Shown here: piece after piece, positions 49,888-60,555 of the stretch | How the letters are laid out: every line of letters starts with the position of its first letter | Numbering within the stretch: the stretch's first letter is position 1 | Assembly: GCA_963809485.1 (NCBI GenBank) | Contig: CAWEJX010000004.1 | Span: 160,001 to 224,000, forward strand | Length of the DNA: 64,000 nt | From: an uncultured Acidobacteriota bacterium | GTDB taxonomy: Bacteria; Acidobacteriota; UBA6911 | Reading direction: 5' to 3' | The notes under the pieces: generated by a model | The model's input: only the letters and a program-made list of their open reading frames with translations | What the model was told of the DNA's origin: nothing | Database searches by the model: none | Position numbers and translations under genes: made by a program

Positions 49888-49908
49888 CGATTTGATAGAT
49901 CGTAATTC

Positions 49909-50149
49909 GGGGTCGGACCACGCTAAATAACTGGCATTAAAGGGTAAAGGTGCAGTTTTGCAGGTCTAAATGGGCTTAGAGCAGAATTGGGGAGGGTATT
50001 TTTGACTGTAAGAAAACAGGGATGTCTCCAATCAGTATGAAAATCCTTACACGTAAAATATGCCGCCCCAAATTGCAGCCGGCCCTTTTATCGGTCCCGA
50101 AAAATTGGTTATCAATAATCCTGCGAAGGCTTTATCGTGGTCTCACCCC
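49909..50149. mobile_element. ~240-bp repeat element with imperfect terminal IRs (GGGGTCGGACCAC / GTGGTCTCACCCC); uninterrupted copy
   Basis: Left part matches 54900-55003, next part matches 58917-58960, right part resembles 52458-52614. Confidence 0.7.
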
Positions 50150-53339: not shown

Positions 53340-53486
53340 CGCTCCCCCACCCTCTTCCGGGCCCTGCTGCGCAATATAAACCTGAATTTACCTGCAATAC
53401 CGCCCACAAGGAGTTTATAGCCTGACGGTAAAAATGCTCGCACGATTTCCTTGCAAATTAGAGGGCGGCGCTCTAATCTGCATAGT

Positions 53487-54647
53487 ATGTGGCGACGCCT
53501 GGCTCAAACGAGATTGCGTGCACTCTGGCGGCAGTTTCCGGCCGTGCTGATTTTGGGAGCGCGCCAGGTCGGCAAAACGACACTGGCCCGCCAGACATTT
53601 CCCGGCTTTCCCTACTGCGACCTGGAGGAACCGCACCTCCGTGCACTGTTTGCCGACGATCCGACATTCCAGATCCAACAACGTTCGCGCCCCGCACTCA
53701 TTATTGACGAAGCTCAGGCCGTGCCCGCTGTTTTTAATTCACTGCGCGGAATCATCGACGCACATCGCAAGAAGAATGGCCGCTTTCTGTTGCTTGGTTC
53801 GGCGCAGCCTTCGCTGGTCCGCCAGATTTCCGAATCGCTCGCCGGCCGGGTCGGAATCCTGGAATTGGACCCGCTTACCGCAGCTGAGGCCGCCACGGGG
53901 GACCGGGCGCGAGACTGGCAGCAATTATGGCTGCAGGGAGGTTTTCCCGATGCTTTGGGCGGCTCCTTTCGCGAATGGTGGGAAGCCTACTTGCGGACTT
54001 ATGTGGAGCGCGACCTACCTCAATTGGGAGTTCCTGCAGATCCCATTCTGCTGCGCCGCCTGCTCACGATGCTGGCGCACATCCAGGGCGGCATGCTCAA
54101 TGCTTCGCAACTCGGCAACTCCCTGGACGTTACGTACCATACGGTGCAGCGCTACCTGAGCGTTCTTGAGCAGACCTTCATTATCCGGCACCTCCCGCCA
54201 TACTATCGCCACATCGGGAAACGCCTGACGAAAGCTCCAAAAATCTATTTGCGCGATACCGGACTGCTGCACCATCTGCTCAATATCAATACGCTGGAGG
54301 AACTCGATCATCATCCCCAGCGCGGCGCCAGCTGGGAGACGTTTGTAATGGAAGACCTCATTCGCAGAGAGAAACTGCGCCATCCGCACGCGCAATTCTA
54401 TTATTGGAGAACTGCGACCGGAGCAGAGCTTGACCTGTTGCTGGACCGCGGATCCCAACGCATTGGAATTGAGATTAAAGCCGGGCGAGGCGACAAAACA
54501 ACTATTGCCCGCGCAACCGAGCAGATTGCCAAGGATGCAGGCGCCACTTCGGTTTGGATTCTCGATCAGGCTGCAGGTACGGAGGCTCTCCGGCCATCTG
54601 TCCGGCGGCGCGGCTTCGCCGAAAGCCTAAAATGGCTTCCCTCCTGA
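53487..54647 (+). CDS. AAA ATPase with DUF4143 domain (intact)
   Basis: GARQVGKTT, IIDEAQ, LGSA, SESLAGR, GGFP, KAPKIYLRDTG, WE, YWRT..GAELDL. Confidence 0.9.
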   Translation: MWRRLAQTRLRALWRQFPAVLILGARQVGKTTLARQTFPGFPYCDLEEPHLRALFADDPTFQIQQRSRPALIIDEAQAVPAVFNSLRGIIDAHRKKNGRFLLLGSAQPSLVRQISESLAGRVGILELDPLTAAEAATGDRARDWQQLWLQGGFPDALGGSFREWWEAYLRTYVERDLPQLGVPADPILLRRLLTMLAHIQGGMLNASQLGNSLDVTYHTVQRYLSVLEQTFIIRHLPPYYRHIGKRLTKAPKIYLRDTGLLHHLLNINTLEELDHHPQRGASWETFVMEDLIRREKLRHPHAQFYYWRTATGAELDLLLDRGSQRIGIEIKAGRGDKTTIARATEQIAKDAGATSVWILDQAAGTEALRPSVRRRGFAESLKWLPS

Positions 54648-54823
54648 TACACTAGCCTGGGCCTCACTGCGAAAAATAAACCTGGCCGAATAATTCGAGA
54701 TTCGATCTTTGTGGAATTAGCGAACTTCATGGCATTCTGCGTCTTGAAATCCATTACAATGTGCCCAACACGATTCTATCAAATTGTATTGAACCGGTTG
54801 TCGACGTGGAGGAGGCGCTCCCG

Positions 54824-54895
54824 ATGATCGGCACGACACTCGGGCATTACCGGATCACCAGCCAGCTTGGATTAGGGGGTAATTTGGACAATTAG
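54824..54895 (+). pseudogene. 5' stub of a second Ser/Thr kinase gene
   Basis: MIGTTLGHYRITSQLG.GG; leader TGTCGACGTGGAGGA.GCGCTCCC.ATGATCGGCA shared with ~52704-52738. Confidence 0.7.
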
Positions 54896-55022
54896 TGACA
54901 ATTCGGGGTCGGACCACTTTAAATCACTGGAAGGGGAAAGGTGCAGTTATGCGGGCCTAAATGGGCCTAAAACAGAATTGAGGGGGGGCATTTTTGATTG
55001 TAATTGACCGGCCAATCGCTGC

Positions 55023-56171
55023 CTATTTTTCTTCTCCAGCCGATCCTGAAGGGTGGAGTTTTTTCAGTTTGCTTGACACCTTGGCAAGCCGATTGATGAG
55101 GCGCTGCATTGTAAGCTGTTGTTTTGAAGCGTTGAGGCCTCGCCGATTCATTTCGAGGAAGTGCATCGCATCGGCAATGCACTGGAGAGCACGGATATGA
55201 GGGTGTACGGATTGGTTACGGGGATTGCTGCGTTGCGGCAGCTGGTAGAGGTTGGCCAGGTTGGCTCGGGCCGAACTATATTCGCGTTGTAGATCTACCT
55301 GACTCACCTCTACATAACGCATTGTCATTTCGATTTTTGTATGTCCGAGGAGTGTTTTGACTGCAGGCAGGCTGGCGCCGCCGCGGAGCATCTCGGTCGC
55401 AAAAGTATGTCTCATTTGATGCGTCGTGATTCGGGACGCACTGCAGTTTGCTTTTCGGGCCGCTTTCCTGATCATCGCGACCATTTGGCTATACGAAGGA
55501 CGGGAGCCATCTTCGCGCATTAGCAAGAAGGTGGATAATTTTCTGGCCTTAGCCGGGGCTCGATTGCGCAAATCATCGAGGTGTTCAATAAGACTACGGC
55601 TATGGGCGTCCAAGGGAACCAATCTTTCCGTATGCATCTTGCCGAGAGGGACGCGGATTGCCCACTGTTGATCGCCCAGATCCCGGAAGCAATCGACTGC
55701 GAGATTCAAACATTCACCAACGCGCATACCGGTGGCACGCATGAGAAGCAGCGCAGTTGCTTCAACGGTGCCTTTTTTGCGGAGTTCTTCGCAAATGAGG
55801 CGATCATCTTCGGGCGAGAGGGGCCGGGGAAGGTACTTGTCCAGGTGTGGGAAGTCTCGGCGAACGATGAGGTTTTCTCTTATTCGGTCTATTCCTTCAT
55901 CGGCAAGGTCGCGAAGGCACTTGCGTAGCTCATAGAGTTGGTGGAGACGGGTGCAGGTTCGGGAGCTGGCCAAAGTTGAGATCCATCCGAGGATATGCGG
56001 ATCCCGCCTGAGTTGGGAGAGCTTATGAATCTCGGGGTGGTTTTGTTTGAGGAAGCGCATGAAGCCATTCAAAGTGCTTCGATACCGATACATCGTGTTT
56101 GGCCTGTGAACAATAGCAAGACTCTGAAGATAGGAATCGAAGATCTGTTGAATAGTGCGCGGTTTACTCAT
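55023..56171 (-). CDS. Tyrosine recombinase 2
   Basis: TGMRVGE, VPLGK..TER, THQMRHTFA, LLGH..IEMT.RY; full catalytic set; helical C-terminal extension. Confidence 0.92.
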   Translation of the reverse strand: MSKPRTIQQIFDSYLQSLAIVHRPNTMYRYRSTLNGFMRFLKQNHPEIHKLSQLRRDPHILGWISTLASSRTCTRLHQLYELRKCLRDLADEGIDRIRENLIVRRDFPHLDKYLPRPLSPEDDRLICEELRKKGTVEATALLLMRATGMRVGECLNLAVDCFRDLGDQQWAIRVPLGKMHTERLVPLDAHSRSLIEHLDDLRNRAPAKARKLSTFLLMREDGSRPSYSQMVAMIRKAARKANCSASRITTHQMRHTFATEMLRGGASLPAVKTLLGHTKIEMTMRYVEVSQVDLQREYSSARANLANLYQLPQRSNPRNQSVHPHIRALQCIADAMHFLEMNRRGLNASKQQLTMQRLINRLAKVSSKLKKLHPSGSAGEEK

Positions 56172-57222
56172 CGAAGGAAGCACTCCGGAGTTGGGCCAAC
56201 GCTTGCGATCGCTTTTCGACGGCGCGGTGATATTCCCGCCAGACATCCTGGGGAGACAATTCCACGTAGAGCATGGTCGTGTGAATCTGAGAATGACCCA
56301 TGAGTCGCATCAGTGCGGGTACTGAAACGCCGGCACGGATCATGTCGGCACCGAAGGTGTGGCGGAACCGATGCGGGTGGGCGTTGATCGTTTGAGTCGC
56401 ACGTCGATGGTGACGAAACAACGAACGCAGGCCGGCGGATGTCATCGGTTGGCCGCGCCGCCATCCCTTGAGAGAAAGAAACAGGAGGGGCGACCCGAAA
56501 GCAGGCCGTTCGAATTCGAGATAACGCCTAAGAACCCGAATGATCGCATCTGCCAATGGCAGAACCCGCTGTCTGTTTCCTTTGCCACGAACAAAGATCT
56601 GAGTCTCGGAAAGCCGCAAATCTTCGAGCCGGAGTTGGATCGTTTCATGGGAACGCAGGCCGTTAAAAAGCATCAATCCCACGAGACTGAGGTCACGGAA
56701 GGTGCGAAAGCTGGACCAGAAACGTGAAACTTCATCAGGCTGGAGGGGGATGACGACTTTTCGAGGTTGTCGTAACCGCAGTCCCGCGATTGCGGTGCTG
56801 GGTTTTCCTATGCCCATTGGACTTCGTCTCTTGTATCGGGTTTGCACACTGGCGCGAGTTCTGGGGACTTCCTTCTGGTAGTAGAATCGGTACAGGGATC
56901 GGACAACCACCAAACGATGATTGACCGTAGGCGGCGACGGCTTGGGTTCGTTTTCAAGTTGGTATCGAACGTAATCGAGCAGACGAAGCTCGTTGAGAGT
57001 GGATAGACTCGGCCAGCGAGAACCGTGTAACCACCAACGGACGAAGTTCAACAGATCGAACCCATACGAGCGCAAGGAACGGACGGAAAGGTTGCGCAGG
57101 TACTGGGCATCCAGAAAATCATTGATGAAACGGACCGGCTGGTCCTTAGAATCCAAGAGTTGATAGGGAGACATGCCCGCAGGGCCGGATGGGTAACGAA
57201 TGAGATGAAAAGGCGGGGTCAT
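56164..57222 (-). CDS. Tyrosine recombinase 1
   Basis: NGLRSHE, RGKGNRQR, HPHRFRHTFG, LMGH..IHTT.LY; ATGA overlap with the primase stop. Confidence 0.92.
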   Translation of the reverse strand: MTPPFHLIRYPSGPAGMSPYQLLDSKDQPVRFINDFLDAQYLRNLSVRSLRSYGFDLLNFVRWWLHGSRWPSLSTLNELRLLDYVRYQLENEPKPSPPTVNHRLVVVRSLYRFYYQKEVPRTRASVQTRYKRRSPMGIGKPSTAIAGLRLRQPRKVVIPLQPDEVSRFWSSFRTFRDLSLVGLMLFNGLRSHETIQLRLEDLRLSETQIFVRGKGNRQRVLPLADAIIRVLRRYLEFERPAFGSPLLFLSLKGWRRGQPMTSAGLRSLFRHHRRATQTINAHPHRFRHTFGADMIRAGVSVPALMRLMGHSQIHTTMLYVELSPQDVWREYHRAVEKRSQALAQLRSASFDE

Positions 57223-58226
57223 ACACATTGTGCTTCCTCCAGACATCTTGTGAAATCAGCAGCGGTGGCTCCGGAAACAAAGAAACTATTGGGATCATGG
57301 TTTTCCGGAAGCGGTACGATCTTCGATTGCAGACCGGCCTCCCGGAGTTGCCGTGCCAGTTTCAAAGCAGCGCGTTGACCGGCAGCATTCGTATCCGAGT
57401 CAAAAGCAATGAAGATCTGTCTATTGAGATCGTCGCATAGTTGGGCAAACTGCTTGCCTGTCAGGTGGCAGCCGAGAGCGCTGGTTGTATTGCGAAAGCC
57501 AGCCTGCCAGAGAACCGCAAGATCGAAAAGGCCTTCCACCAGGATAACGTTGGGAGCATTGTGAATCGACTCCCATGCGACCAGGCCGATCCTAACACGA
57601 GGCAGAAATCGATGTGGCGGCGGGGGACCGATGCTGCGTCCGTACAGATTGACGATGCGGTTCTGATCGAGACAAGGAAAGACGATGCGGTGAAAGAAGG
57701 TGTCATGCCCCTTTTGATTTATCAATCCAAGATTCACGAGCCGGTCGTAATTGTGGCCGCATACCGATAACAGGTGCCCACGCAAACTGCCGCCTGGCGC
57801 ATAGCCCAATCGAAGGTGACGTAATATCTCTGGATCCCGCAATCCGCGTTGGTGAAGATAGTTCATCGCTTCCTGGTGGTGCTGCAACTGATACTGGTAA
57901 AAAGCGACCGTATCGCGGAGGAGGTCGTCATCACCCCTGAGCTTGTCCCATTCTCCGGCCAGCCGTGCGACGCTATCGCGGAAAGAAAGGTTGAAGTAGA
58001 CCTGGACGAAGCGAATCAAGTCGCCGCCATAGCCACAGCCATGGCAGTGAAAAAGATTTTTCTCGGCGTTGACATAGAACGACGGCTGGGTCTCGGAGTG
58101 CAGCGGGCACAATCCAACATATTCGTTCCCTGAACCCACAGGACGGCCAGTCCAATTGAGGCGTTTGAGATAATCCAACAGTGGAAGATCGCGCTTAAGT
58201 TTTTCCACTTCCTTGCAGTTTGCCAT
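57219..58226 (-). CDS. DnaG-type primase (CHC2 zinc finger + Toprim), no helicase-binding domain
   Basis: CPLHSETQPSF, FHCHGCG.GGD, YL..RG, RIVFP, LVEGLFD, FDSD..GQ.AA, DPN. Confidence 0.9.
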   Translation of the reverse strand: MANCKEVEKLKRDLPLLDYLKRLNWTGRPVGSGNEYVGLCPLHSETQPSFYVNAEKNLFHCHGCGYGGDLIRFVQVYFNLSFRDSVARLAGEWDKLRGDDDLLRDTVAFYQYQLQHHQEAMNYLHQRGLRDPEILRHLRLGYAPGGSLRGHLLSVCGHNYDRLVNLGLINQKGHDTFFHRIVFPCLDQNRIVNLYGRSIGPPPPHRFLPRVRIGLVAWESIHNAPNVILVEGLFDLAVLWQAGFRNTTSALGCHLTGKQFAQLCDDLNRQIFIAFDSDTNAAGQRAALKLARQLREAGLQSKIVPLPENHDPNSFFVSGATAADFTRCLEEAQCV

Positions 58227-58609
58227 CAGAGCCTCCGGACGGGAACGCCTGTTCGGCCGCAAATGATGCAGGCGATACGTTCGAGAGGGTTTGCTCTCGC
58301 AGATCCGACGTTCCCTGACTTTGATGGATCGATCCTGACATTACTGTCTTGGCTTCTGGAACCCTGATACGTCACGCTTTTTTTATTGGACTGGCGCAGA
58401 CGATAGTTGCGCTGGTGGTCTCGATGGTCGAGTTTGCCTAAGGGACTTTGCCGGTAGCGTCTATTCGCTTCGCGCAGTTGGTGCCGGCGGGCGCGGTCCC
58501 GACATGCCTGACTGCAGTAGTGCTGTCCGCGATCGCAGTGACTGCAGATATGGAATATCTTGCCGCACCCCGCGGCATGGCAAGATCGTTGCCGGAGGAT
58601 GAGTTCCAG
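58226..58609 (-). CDS. Cys-rich basic protein (~127 aa), absent from the ORF track
   Basis: Hand translation: LELILRQRSCHAAGCGKIFHICSHCDRGQHYCSQACRDRARRHQLREANRRYRQSPLGKLDHRDHQRNYR...VTYQGS...CIICGRTG; TGATG overlap with the primase start; CTG start, or TTG start if the C-run has one extra base. Confidence 0.75.
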   Translation of the reverse strand: MELILRQRSCHAAGCGKIFHICSHCDRGQHYCSQACRDRARRHQLREANRRYRQSPLGKLDHRDHQRNYRLRQSNKKSVTYQGSRSQDSNVRIDPSKSGNVGSARANPLERIACIICGRTGVPVRRL

Positions 58610-59043
58610 GGGCCAATCGTCCTTTCCCGAAGGCGGGACTCGACAACGGCCCCCATGTCATGGCACGCTAAAGACGACTTTGGTTCTGGGAGCTTTAACC
58701 GGGCTCTTGGAATTTAGCCTCGATCGTTACAGCGGTCGGGGCTTTCTTTTTCCGCCTTTCACGCCGCCACGATATCACCACCAGGGCTCAAGAAATCTAT
58801 TGCAGTTACCCAGAAGCAAAGAACACGGCTGAATAAAAGAGAAACCAGCTGAAAGAAAAAATAGGCAGCCACTCCTGGGCTGGTTTAGAAAAAACGACAT
58901 TTTGGCCGGTTAATAGGTAAGAAATCGGGGATGTTTCCAATCAGAATGAAAATCCCTACATACTCAGCATCTTTTCGAAGGGCGGCGCGTCAGGCGTTTT
59001 GTGAGAATTGAATCTGTGGCCATGCGCGAACCTACTCATAAGG

Positions 59044-59085
59044 TTCAGCGTTCATCGGCGTTTTTGTCAGCGTAGGTCAGCGTTA
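59044..59085 (+). repeat. Four-unit TC(A/G)GCG phased array
   Basis: tcagcgttca tcggcgtttttg tcagcgtagg tcagcgtt (10-12-10). Confidence 0.7.
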
Positions 59086-59109
59086 AAAGGGCCTGGAGCC
59101 CCGGCGCAG

Positions 59110-60555
59110 CTAAAAAGCTTCCCGTATCTTCGCCGCCCAGTGGACGAAATTGCCGTAGAGGTGCCCAAGGTGGGGCGCCGGGGAAAAGTGCCCGTGCCTG
59201 AGGTCCGTCTCCAGGGACTTTTTCATCAGCTCCATCGGGATATTTTTGCTGTCGGGCAGCGTGCGGTCGTAAAAGAACAGCAATTCAACATGGGCGCCAT
59301 GGCCATACTCGATCGGGATAATCTGGAAATTATTCGGCGCGTTTAAAATCAGCTTCCTATCGATGAAGTCGTTGAGGAACTCCGGAAACGCTTTAGCTAT
59401 CTCACAGGTGTGGCGGAGCGAGTCTGCGTGCAGGACCGGCGCCCACCCTCCGCCAAGCTTCAGCACGCGTTGCAGGAAACTCACGATGATGAAGAAGTCC
59501 ATATTGTCTTCCCATATCTTACGAATGGATGGATCGACTTCTTCTCCCCCAGTTTCTCTGACGATATCCCACAGGACCCGCTCCTCATACGCCGTTTCCT
59601 CCGGAGACGAGGTGGCCAGGTAAACCCAGACCGCGCAGGACAGCTCTTTCTGGAAAAGTCCGCTGTTCCACAGCGTCCAGAAATCGTTGGCCGAAACCGT
59701 GAACATCACAGCCGCAGTGGCATAGAAGAACTTCAGCACCGCCGCACCGATTTCGGCTCTGCCCATTTCGATCATGAAATCGCGGGCCTTTTCGAGCGCA
59801 GCAAACTTGAAGATAAAGACTTTGTGGCAGTCCTGAGGCAGGCGGACCTTGTACGATGGAGTGCGTCCAAAAGACGGCATGACTGCAGGCCCTTTCCAGG
59901 CGTCCAGGCCAATGGCTGCCTTGGTAAAAACGCCGCGCCCCTTCTGAATCAAGCCTACCAGACTTGGTCCGGGCCCATCCGGGCAGAACCATCCGGCGTC
60001 ACCTCCAAGAGAGCCGGCCCTGAGAATTTCGCCTGAAGGCATCACCCACTCGTATCCCAGCAGATAGCGGTTATTCTTCGAGGTGCTGTGCTGGTTGTGG
60101 TGTTCCCCCTTGCCCAGAAAGTTTGACATTACCGAGCACGACGGTCCTACGGACGGGACCGGATAGCTCAGTCCCCTTTTCATGAGTTCCGGCTTCAACT
60201 GGACATGCCGGACTCCGGGCTCAACCACCACGTAGCGGTCCTCTTCGTTGATCTCCAGGATCCGATTCATTCGTCTCAGGCTGAGAATGATCTTCAGCTT
60301 GGGGCCGGGCGGCATTCCGGCGGAAAGGAGCGAGACGACTGAATTGCACTGGATGTCGTACTGCCTGCATATTTTGACGACAGCCTGCACCTCTTCGGTA
60401 TTGCCCGGCAAAACGACGGCATCGGGGCTTGCGGGCTTGCGGCCATCCTGGGGCGAAGTGTGCCGGTAGGCGGCGAGGATATGGGGGCGGCCACTTATGT
60501 ATTCTTTCCCCACAACGCCTTCGAGCATCCTGAAAATATCTTCCGGTAAGCTCAT
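59110..60555 (-). CDS. FAD-binding oxidoreductase (GlcD/VAO family)
   Basis: PDAVVLP..TEEVQ, LRRMNRILEI, VVEPGV, EWVMPSGE, WFCPDGPGPSL. Confidence 0.85.
   Translation of the reverse strand: MSLPEDIFRMLEGVVGKEYISGRPHILAAYRHTSPQDGRKPASPDAVVLPGNTEEVQAVVKICRQYDIQCNSVVSLLSAGMPPGPKLKIILSLRRMNRILEINEEDRYVVVEPGVRHVQLKPELMKRGLSYPVPSVGPSCSVMSNFLGKGEHHNQHSTSKNNRYLLGYEWVMPSGEILRAGSLGGDAGWFCPDGPGPSLVGLIQKGRGVFTKAAIGLDAWKGPAVMPSFGRTPSYKVRLPQDCHKVFIFKFAALEKARDFMIEMGRAEIGAAVLKFFYATAAVMFTVSANDFWTLWNSGLFQKELSCAVWVYLATSSPEETAYEERVLWDIVRETGGEEVDPSIRKIWEDNMDFFIIVSFLQRVLKLGGGWAPVLHADSLRHTCEIAKAFPEFLNDFIDRKLILNAPNNFQIIPIEYGHGAHVELLFFYDRTLPDSKNIPMELMKKSLETDLRHGHFSPAPHLGHLYGNFVHWAAKIREAF

Follow-up and report, generated by a model that had tools for sequence, protein, structure and literature searches.

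The window, a stretch of 64,000 nucleotides from the genome of an uncultured Acidobacteriota bacterium, contains a mobile element at positions 55000-58921. A search of the same genome (G000) showed that this 3922-bp stretch recurs with 100% identity at G000:C7:257811-261732, and the sequences flanking the two copies (copy A in the window and copy B on contig C7) are unrelated. Both copies start with GTAA followed by a 12-mer and finish with a 12-mer followed by TAGGTAA and a G, and the 12-bp inverted repeats lie exactly at the boundaries of the duplicated stretch. The interval between the end repeats is occupied by three overlapping open reading frames (ORFs) on the minus strand, which encode a primase and two tyrosine recombinases, YR1 and YR2 (Table 1). 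Read along this strand, the order is IR-L, a small Cys-rich gene with a frameshift, the DnaG-like primase, YR1, YR2 and IR-R. The primase and the small gene upstream of it are gene content absent from a preliminary description of this DNA, and no cargo genes are found in the 3.9-kb element. Domain searches revealed no DDE-type transposase domain in any ORF of the element, Rfam gave no match at E ≤ 1 within 54800-59200, and a promoter scan returned 5 sites (2.3 expected), none of them conserved. Taken as a whole, the observations are best explained if the repeats described earlier mark the primase-side end of a cargo-free 3.9-kb transposon that moves by tyrosine recombination, an explanation that we consider probable with good confidence.

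Table 1. Features of copy A of the element and its 7-nt flanks, in positions of the window.
Feature	Position	Strand	Basis or remark
Target-derived 7-mer ATTGTAA beside the YR2-side end	54997..55003	.	Unoccupied paralogue on the same contig; contig of run X2
Terminal inverted repeat, YR2-side end (IR-R in gene orientation)	55004..55015	.	Boundary of duplication; motif conserved there in relatives
Conserved block inside the YR2-side end	55016..55030	.	Holds the inner 13-mer (55018-55030) and the YR2 stop codon (55023-55025)
YR2, tyrosine recombinase, 407 aa	55023..56246	-	PF00589, 6e-31
YR1, tyrosine recombinase, 360 aa	56164..57246	-	PF00589, 2.3e-31
DnaG-like primase, 347 aa	57219..58262	-	PF01807 5e-20, PF13155 2.3e-16, PF08275 5.1e-10
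Small Cys-rich gene Z, split by a 1-nt frameshift	58226..58656	-	Intact 153-aa homologue in L047
Second copy of the inner 13-mer (58857-58869) in a terminator-like hairpin with T-run	58857..58882	-	Sequence match; hairpin scan
Terminal inverted repeat, primase-side end (IR-L in gene orientation)	58902..58913	.	Duplication boundary; conserved in relatives
Brought-in 7-mer TAGGTAA	58914..58920	.	Identical at both copies; TAG absent from unoccupied sites

YR1 and YR2 are Xer-like proteins, each with a SAM-like N-terminal domain and a phage-integrase catalytic domain (Pfam). Alignment showed that the residues R198, K222, H292, R295, H318 and Y327 of YR1 are invariant in the relatives aligned, as are R175, K203, H276, R279, H302 and Y311 of YR2 in 4 relatives; YR2 continues for ∼90 aa beyond the catalytic tyrosine. 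Against the NCBIfam equivalog models of XerC and XerD, the best scores of the two proteins were 119.5 and 121.6 bits, well under the cut-off of 335.15 bits. The best matches of YR1 in a plasmid collection were actinobacterial tyrosine recombinases with 33-37% identity. Two of these places were inspected. On the Rhodococcus plasmid pR1CP1, a 360-aa recombinase is followed by a 643-aa recombinase and a gene of ∼100 aa; YR1 shares 36% identity with the short protein over 329 aa (E 5e-56), and YR2 aligns to residues 217-536 of the long one, with 30% identity over 325 aa (E 3e-39). YR1 and YR2 match each other over 188 aa only (32%), and each is closer to its pR1CP1 counterpart. A similar row of genes on a Mycobacterium plasmid consists of a 360-aa recombinase, a small hypothetical ORF, a 484-aa site-specific integrase and a gene of ∼100 aa.

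The primase contains the CHC2 zinc finger and the Toprim core and lacks the C-terminal helicase-binding part of cellular DnaG; its score against TIGR01391 is 181 bits, under the cut-off of 283.6. Across 3 relatives there is no change in the zinc ligands C52, H55, C73 and C76 or in the acidic Toprim residues E243, D288 and D290. A locus search with the primase as the single query protein returned 1 relative only, and a phylum-wide search of 401 genomes gave mostly matches to host DnaG, with short relatives only in G279 (3 places), G113 (2) and G126 (1). In one related element, from a Bryobacterales MAG, the primase gene is split by an insert with a 414-aa ORF (L011, 5058-6302); since an ORF of equal length lies at 673-1917 of the same locus, the insert is probably an insertion sequence.

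The small Cys-rich protein Z, of ∼135-153 aa, is intact in L047 and a few other relatives, and its gene was found in only 9 of 58 elements. No Pfam family scored above cut-off (the best, NinG, reached E 5.5e-4 in L059 alone, below cut-off), and neither a relative in the PDB nor a PADLOC family was found. In the window, the start of Z (MGAVVESRLRE, from 58656) and its body (58226-58609) are in differing frames, which we attribute to one base missing at the C-run near 58609-58612. As the two genome copies are identical, both carry this frameshift, which may reflect a genuine defect, programmed frameshifting or an assembly error in a homopolymer.

The sequences into which the two copies are inserted reveal what belongs to the element. 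Copy A sits in a repeat of ∼300 bp whose inverted termini are of the form GGGGTCGGACCACG ... CGTGGTCCGACCCC; it belongs to a MITE-like family present several times in the genome (window 54900-55003 plus 58921-58975; a paralogue at ∼49904-50100; C7:579523, C7:581042 and C12:250201). The paralogue ∼5 kb upstream of copy A carries a single GTAA at the insertion site, followed directly by the sequence that adjoins the element on its right. In addition, a 151-nt contig of run X2 joins position 54986 to 58918 with 12 letters between and represents the site of copy A without the element; this is one contig of depth 2, with CTAA instead of GTAA. Copy B lies in a different repeat family, whose paralogues likewise carry a single GTAA, followed by G-tatc. 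It is situated at the edge of this second repeat (aactgggaactctgaactggaaactgaattt..., G000:C7:257700-257810), which has its core in a tandem array at C19:41168-41906 and paralogues at C7:384716, C6:16012, C20:257415 and C9:83609. Because the paralogues of both sites carry one GTAA, the insert amounts to 3913 bp plus the repeated GTAA.

A comparison of the occupied and unoccupied sites showed that the two flanks differ in origin. TAGGTAA adjoins the primase-side end in both copies, and its first three bases, TAG, are not derived from the target. The 7-mers at the YR2-side end, ATTGTAA in copy A and CAGGTAA in copy B, are the target's own, as seen in the unoccupied paralogues or the X2 contig. 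In copy A the last 4 nt, GTAA, are the sole part of ATTGTAA that is repeated at the other junction. The flanking 7-mers of the two copies are thus imperfect repeats, matching at 4 of 7 positions in copy A and at 6 of 7 in copy B. Since the copies themselves are identical, such imperfect flanks argue that the 7-mers are not duplications left by the repair of staggered cuts; with one flank belonging to the target and the other to the element, they are not a target duplication made by replication either. The TAGGTAA shared by the two copies matches neither target-side 7-mer, so that under the 'brought-in' rule of Tn554 neither copy would be the donor of the other.

These observations bear on the reading that a DDE transposase acting in trans produced the 7-nt flanks as target-site duplications, with the recombinases as cargo, or that the element is an invertible segment. 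Short terminal inverted repeats next to short direct repeats do have the usual look of an insertion sequence, and DDE-type insertion sequences carry a transposase and make perfect duplications. The element has neither: a transposase domain is found in none of its ORFs, its freshly duplicated copies have flanks that agree at only 4 and 6 of 7 positions, and the mismatches have a polarity (see below) unexpected from staggered cuts. An invertible segment, for its part, would not occupy two unrelated loci with precise boundaries. We consider this reading close to refuted and extremely improbable.

According to the preliminary description, joining the ends of the element would create a site of the core type, with 12-bp inverted arms around a 7-nt spacer, and a second, inner pair of repeats would lie asymmetrically inside the first. 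Pattern searches and shuffles confirmed all the repeats, TAGGTAA and the spacings at the positions given there. The outer repeat, on the plus strand at the primase-side end and on the minus strand at the YR2-side end, agrees at 11 of 12 positions (1 mismatch). For a 12-mer with up to one mismatch, 0.22 matches are expected in the window, and two or more occurred in 1 of 100 shuffles. The spacer of the element's own circle would be either TAGGTAA or the 7-mer of the other flank, ATTGTAA. The prediction of a 12-7-12 core-type site is supported for the family to which the element belongs by the 7-nt register of the flanks, by junctions in three metagenome contigs and by the precedent of Tn552-II, all of which are considered below.

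We searched the contigs of one genome per species with a YR1 profile built from four elements, and obtained at least 602 matching stretches. The matches listed included 531 confirmed relatives, and 80 loci were retained. These relatives came mostly from Acidobacteriota MAGs, with a few in bins labelled Nitrospirota, Chromatiaceae, Hyphomicrobiales, Xanthobacteraceae, Verrucomicrobiota and Deltaproteobacteria, again among the matches listed, where many consist of a contig of ∼4 kb, i.e., of the element alone. Relatives of the element are common across soil bacteria. Family members measure 3.3-4.2 kb and retain the order primase-YR1-YR2, except that a subgroup of 3.3-3.7 kb has no match to the primase while its ends and the 7-nt rule are unchanged. 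In the primase position, L102, the one member of this subgroup whose ORFs were listed, carries a 181-aa ORF (1193-1738) with a faint match to HTH_36 (E 0.19); related ORFs were detected in 12 elements examined, with the same position in L095, L106 and others.

Both end motifs were found at the expected distances in 58 of 84 loci examined, and the remaining 26 include many cut contigs. In 48 distinct end pairs, 13-14 nt are conserved at the primase-side end and ∼27 nt from the tip at the YR2-side end, and the third base from the tip consistently distinguishes the two 12-mers. Because a motif search served to locate the ends, part of the conservation of the 12-mers follows from the method, which does not hold for their position. 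One genome, G279, holds two copies (L043 and L044) that are 99.88% identical and whose shared sequence extends beyond the 7-mers by 9 nt and 8 nt on the two sides, and a search of that genome at up to 3 mismatches gave no match to an unoccupied site of this pair.

The flanks of the relatives disclose a rule of target choice. In 57 distinct related insertions, several of which come from one genome or from close relatives and are therefore not independent, the 7-mers outside the two ends agree with each other in one register only. Within this register the flanks have an identity of 0.84, which drops to 0.18-0.27 on sliding either flank by 1-3 nt, and 334 of 399 flank positions match, compared to 137 on average and 177 at most in 2000 re-pairings. 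With numbering from the YR2-side end, positions 1-7 match in 55, 55, 54, 54, 39, 40 and 37 of the 57 insertions, and identity is complete (7/7) in 28. Thus 55 of the 65 mismatches fall at positions 5-7, and this concentration indicates that homology is needed only beside the YR2-side arm. Two insertions are exceptions. In L050, 2 of the first 4 positions match, and the flank resembles a second arm and forms a natural 12-7-12 pseudo-site; in L123 the flanks correspond only after an offset of 4 nt. By our own count from the table of insertions, the 57 have ∼25 different 4-nt starts. Lineages share a 4-nt start together with the whole target context across genomes, as in tgagNtt-TCGGCAA-gNctgcg, which means that insertion is lineage-specific and site-selective.

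A direct pattern search for the right end, any 7 nt and the left end gave no match in the genome contigs, and four metagenome contigs matched. Three of them (L127, L129 and L130) run from the last bases of an element through exactly 7 nt into base 1 onward of the same element type; the elements in question are the relatives L121, L072 and L059, respectively. Two of these three contigs, Ga0326727_10092818 of 4058 nt and Ga0315268_10049716 of 3973 nt, have about the length of one element unit. The fourth contig, L128, is arranged differently: within other (chromosomal) DNA, the right end of a full element is followed by a shared 7 nt and by a mini-element. This mini-element (L128:1950-2041, minus strand) measures 71 bp and consists of the left 12-mer, 47 nt and a 12-mer of the right type. 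The arrangement in L128 indicates that such junctions can also come from tandem insertion, and the junction contigs could accordingly be tandem copies. In three runs of one study (contigs; word shares 0.16, 0.06 and 0.00) the element itself occurred only as fragments, in 5, 6 and 1 contigs, and no junction of its own ends was seen among them. A head-to-tail junction with 7 nt between the ends is seen in relatives of the element; for the element itself it is predicted.

We propose head-to-tail joining of the ends by the two recombinases, which would produce a circle or a copied-out circle. The junction would consist of IR-R, 7 nt and IR-L, that is, of a 12-7-12 core site with the geometry usual for tyrosine recombinases, and would recombine with a target that matches the 7-mer of the element at least in the first 4 nt, beside IR-R. 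Following insertion, the 7-mer of the target would lie beside IR-R and that of the element beside IR-L. Circles (as opposed to tandem copies), the order of strand exchange, the pairing of recombinases with sites and the replication of the excised form by the primase are parts of this scheme that we infer from the sequences. Two readings of the exchange fit the data: either only the exchange at the YR2-side arm is required and replication resolves the rest, or both strands are exchanged and heterology is tolerated. If the former applied, the element-borne 7-mer would always be found at the primase side, as is seen at both copies, which represent two events only.

A possible elaboration of the first reading, which we put forward tentatively, is a strand-biased transposon that primes its own replication. 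Exchange would take place on the IR-R side only and leave a single-stranded or half-exchanged intermediate, on which synthesis of the complementary strand would be started by the element's own primase, perhaps at the hairpins located slightly inward of the primase-side end. Exchange on this side alone would explain why pairing with the target is required for no more than the first 4 nt. The 7-mer would then serve each lineage as an inherited address tag that directs it to a target of its own.

The element may alternatively be an ordinary integrating replicon, in which both strands are exchanged over a 7-bp overlap, as in phages and integrative conjugative elements, and heteroduplex at positions 5-7 is settled by repair or replication. 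The primase, or the HTH-like gene that replaces it, would then replicate the excised circle in the manner of a small plasmid. The 12-7-12 geometry is the classical one for such a replicon, and the 28 insertions with complete flank identity, the presence of a replication-type gene in both subgroups of the family and the two junction contigs of unit length are in keeping with it. However, random settling of the heteroduplex should place the 7-mer of the element at either junction, and it is found at the primase side in both copies; as these are two events only, the argument is a weak one. In addition, classical tyrosine recombinases are generally blocked by heterology in the overlap. We regard this alternative as rather doubtful.

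The preliminary description went on to assign the two repeat pairs to the two recombinases, the outer 12-mers serving one and the inner 13-mers the other, in an asymmetric arrangement. The inner repeat itself is exact, on the plus strand near YR2 and on the minus strand near the primase-side end; its copies are separated from the left and right outer repeats by 2 nt and 32 nt, respectively, on the inner side, and the left one covers the stop codon of YR2, all as described. The expected number of matches in the window is 0.08, and none of 100 shuffles gave two or more. A local alignment of the end interiors of this element was also better than in shuffles (p=0.000 over 200 shuffles), and its closest relative, L047, has a weak counterpart of the 13-mer at a similar offset, with 4 mismatches in 13. 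The proposal of two site types was, however, not borne out in the family. Of 50 distinct relatives, only 2 had end interiors whose alignment exceeded that of shuffles at p ≤ 0.01, and 5 did so at p ≤ 0.05 (∼2.5 expected by chance); the two cases at p ≤ 0.01 are the element in the window and L059, where the repeat lies at another place. An exact reverse complement of the inner block of each element was found in its other end in few cases.

Each copy of the 13-mer belongs to a structure of its own. The copy near YR2 is part of the 27-nt end block that is conserved in the family and overlaps the YR2 stop codon, and the primase-side copy makes up the 3' half of a hairpin that resembles a terminator and has a T-run (partner 58866-58882). 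Of 50 primase-side ends, 21 contain a T-rich motif 32-116 nt inward of the tip, compared to 10 of 1000 shuffles. Also against two tiers of sites are the architecture of YR1 and YR2, which are simple Xer-like proteins with one core-binding domain each, and the consistent one-base difference between the core arms, which already provides two half-sites. Two slightly different core arms are a simpler home for two recombinases than two site types, and we consider the two-tier arrangement improbable.

We compared the element with known systems. Transposons that move by tyrosine recombinases and lack phage or conjugation functions fall into five groups according to PMC10214605, and their route of strand exchange remains under debate. 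In the full-text literature searched, from which subscription journals and ISfinder/TnCentral were outside the scope, we found no description of a transposon with a primase and two recombinases, and a term search of PMC8138268 (a classification of tyrosine recombinases) returned no mention of a primase. The element apparently represents an undescribed transposon of the Tn554/SE kind with a distinct gene set.

The resemblance to the Tn554 family is extensive. Both have two adjacent, co-oriented and overlapping tyrosine recombinase genes, one for a protein of ∼360 aa and one for a longer protein, and both have target sequences that are specific to lineages. In the Tn554 family (Tn554, Tn553/Tn552-II), transposition passes through a circle that has a 7-bp spacer, as we propose for the element, and the 7-mer of one flank comes from elsewhere (PMC12486829). 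For Tn552-II, a transposon of the Tn554 type with tnpABC, that source reports a PCR-verified circle with termini set apart by a 7-bp spacer, together with a 'brought-in' att, and proposes a model in which a single-stranded circle is formed and then replicated. Actinobacterial transposons with kinship to Tn554 have been described by Van Houdt et al. (PMC3414803), and judging from the architecture given there we take the pR1CP1 pair to be of this kind. A short and a long recombinase thus connect the element to the group by way of pR1CP1, the link to Tn554 proper being drawn from PMC3414803. A 7-nt spacer between joined termini, within the 6-7 bp of Tn554-related transposons, was found in the relatives L127, L129 and L130, and at both copies of the element one flank is derived from the target and the other is brought in.

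There are also clear differences. The long recombinase of Tn554-related elements has an N-terminal extension of ∼200 aa, which YR2 lacks (407 aa, compared to 643 aa). Unlike the Tn554 family, the element has no TnpC-like gene, as its end repeat starts 7 nt after the YR2 stop codon; relatives end ∼10-30 nt after YR2, and some of the related elements in PMC3414803 are likewise without TnpC. Instead, the element carries the primase and the small Cys-rich gene, has strongly conserved terminal inverted repeats of 12-14 bp and is devoid of cargo, and its hosts belong to another phylum. Its brought-in 7-mer lies upstream of the recombinase genes, whereas that of the Tn554 family is at the far end.

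Strand-biased circularizing elements (SEs), as described in PMC10214605, share with the element two catalytic tyrosine recombinases, imperfect terminal repeats that form a joined site separated by a spacer, one flank that is the 'fingerprint' of an earlier site (the same asymmetry of flanks) and an absence of conjugation genes. SEs consist of intA, tfp, intB and srap, have a 6-bp spacer and repeats of 13-19 bp, carry cargo and are found in Gammaproteobacteria, according to the same text. The element differs in its 7-nt spacer, its primase, its lack of cargo and its occurrence mainly in Acidobacteriota; the difference with respect to Tfp and Srap is based on the description of gene sets. RIT elements are alike in their overlapping tyrosine recombinase genes, a unit of ∼3.5 kb, terminal inverted repeats and multiple identical copies per genome, and are set apart by description, with three recombinases as opposed to two PF00589 ORFs and a primase (PMC3414803).

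XerC/XerD at dif and integrases of the CTnDOT type also employ two related recombinases on two inverted arms around a central region of 6-8 bp. The scores of 119-122 bits against a cut-off of 335 argue that the element's recombinases are not XerC/XerD, and the arm-binding domain of IntDOT is absent from YR1 and YR2. IntDOT needs homology on one side of the overlap only.

Transposons of this kind that depend on tyrosine recombinases are few and poorly understood, and the present family offers advantages for their study, being small (3.3-4.2 kb), cargo-free and very numerous, with sharp ends. Dozens of natural insertions display its rule of target choice, in which 4 nt must match and 3 nt are free. 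Linkage to a primase or to another putative gene of the replication type points to replication of a transposition intermediate, a step that is merely assumed in current models of Tn554 and the SEs. The family also explains many orphan contigs of ∼4 kb in Acidobacteriota MAGs as copies of an element collapsed as repeats.

Directly to the left of the target repeat, the window contains a gene for a 398-aa ATPase with AAA_14 and DUF4143 domains (53451-54647). Between them, at 54823-54880, a short ORF begins with MIGTTLGHYRITSQLGLGG, which we take to resemble a Ser/Thr kinase at its N-terminus, and stops soon after; pieces of 70 nt similar to this stretch occur at ∼52705 in the window, at C7:575102 and at C20:1059403. 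To the right of the element, a repeat of ∼42 nt at 59044-59085 makes up 36 of the 45 places that the own-genome search listed, among them tandem sets on C7 near 251553-252063.
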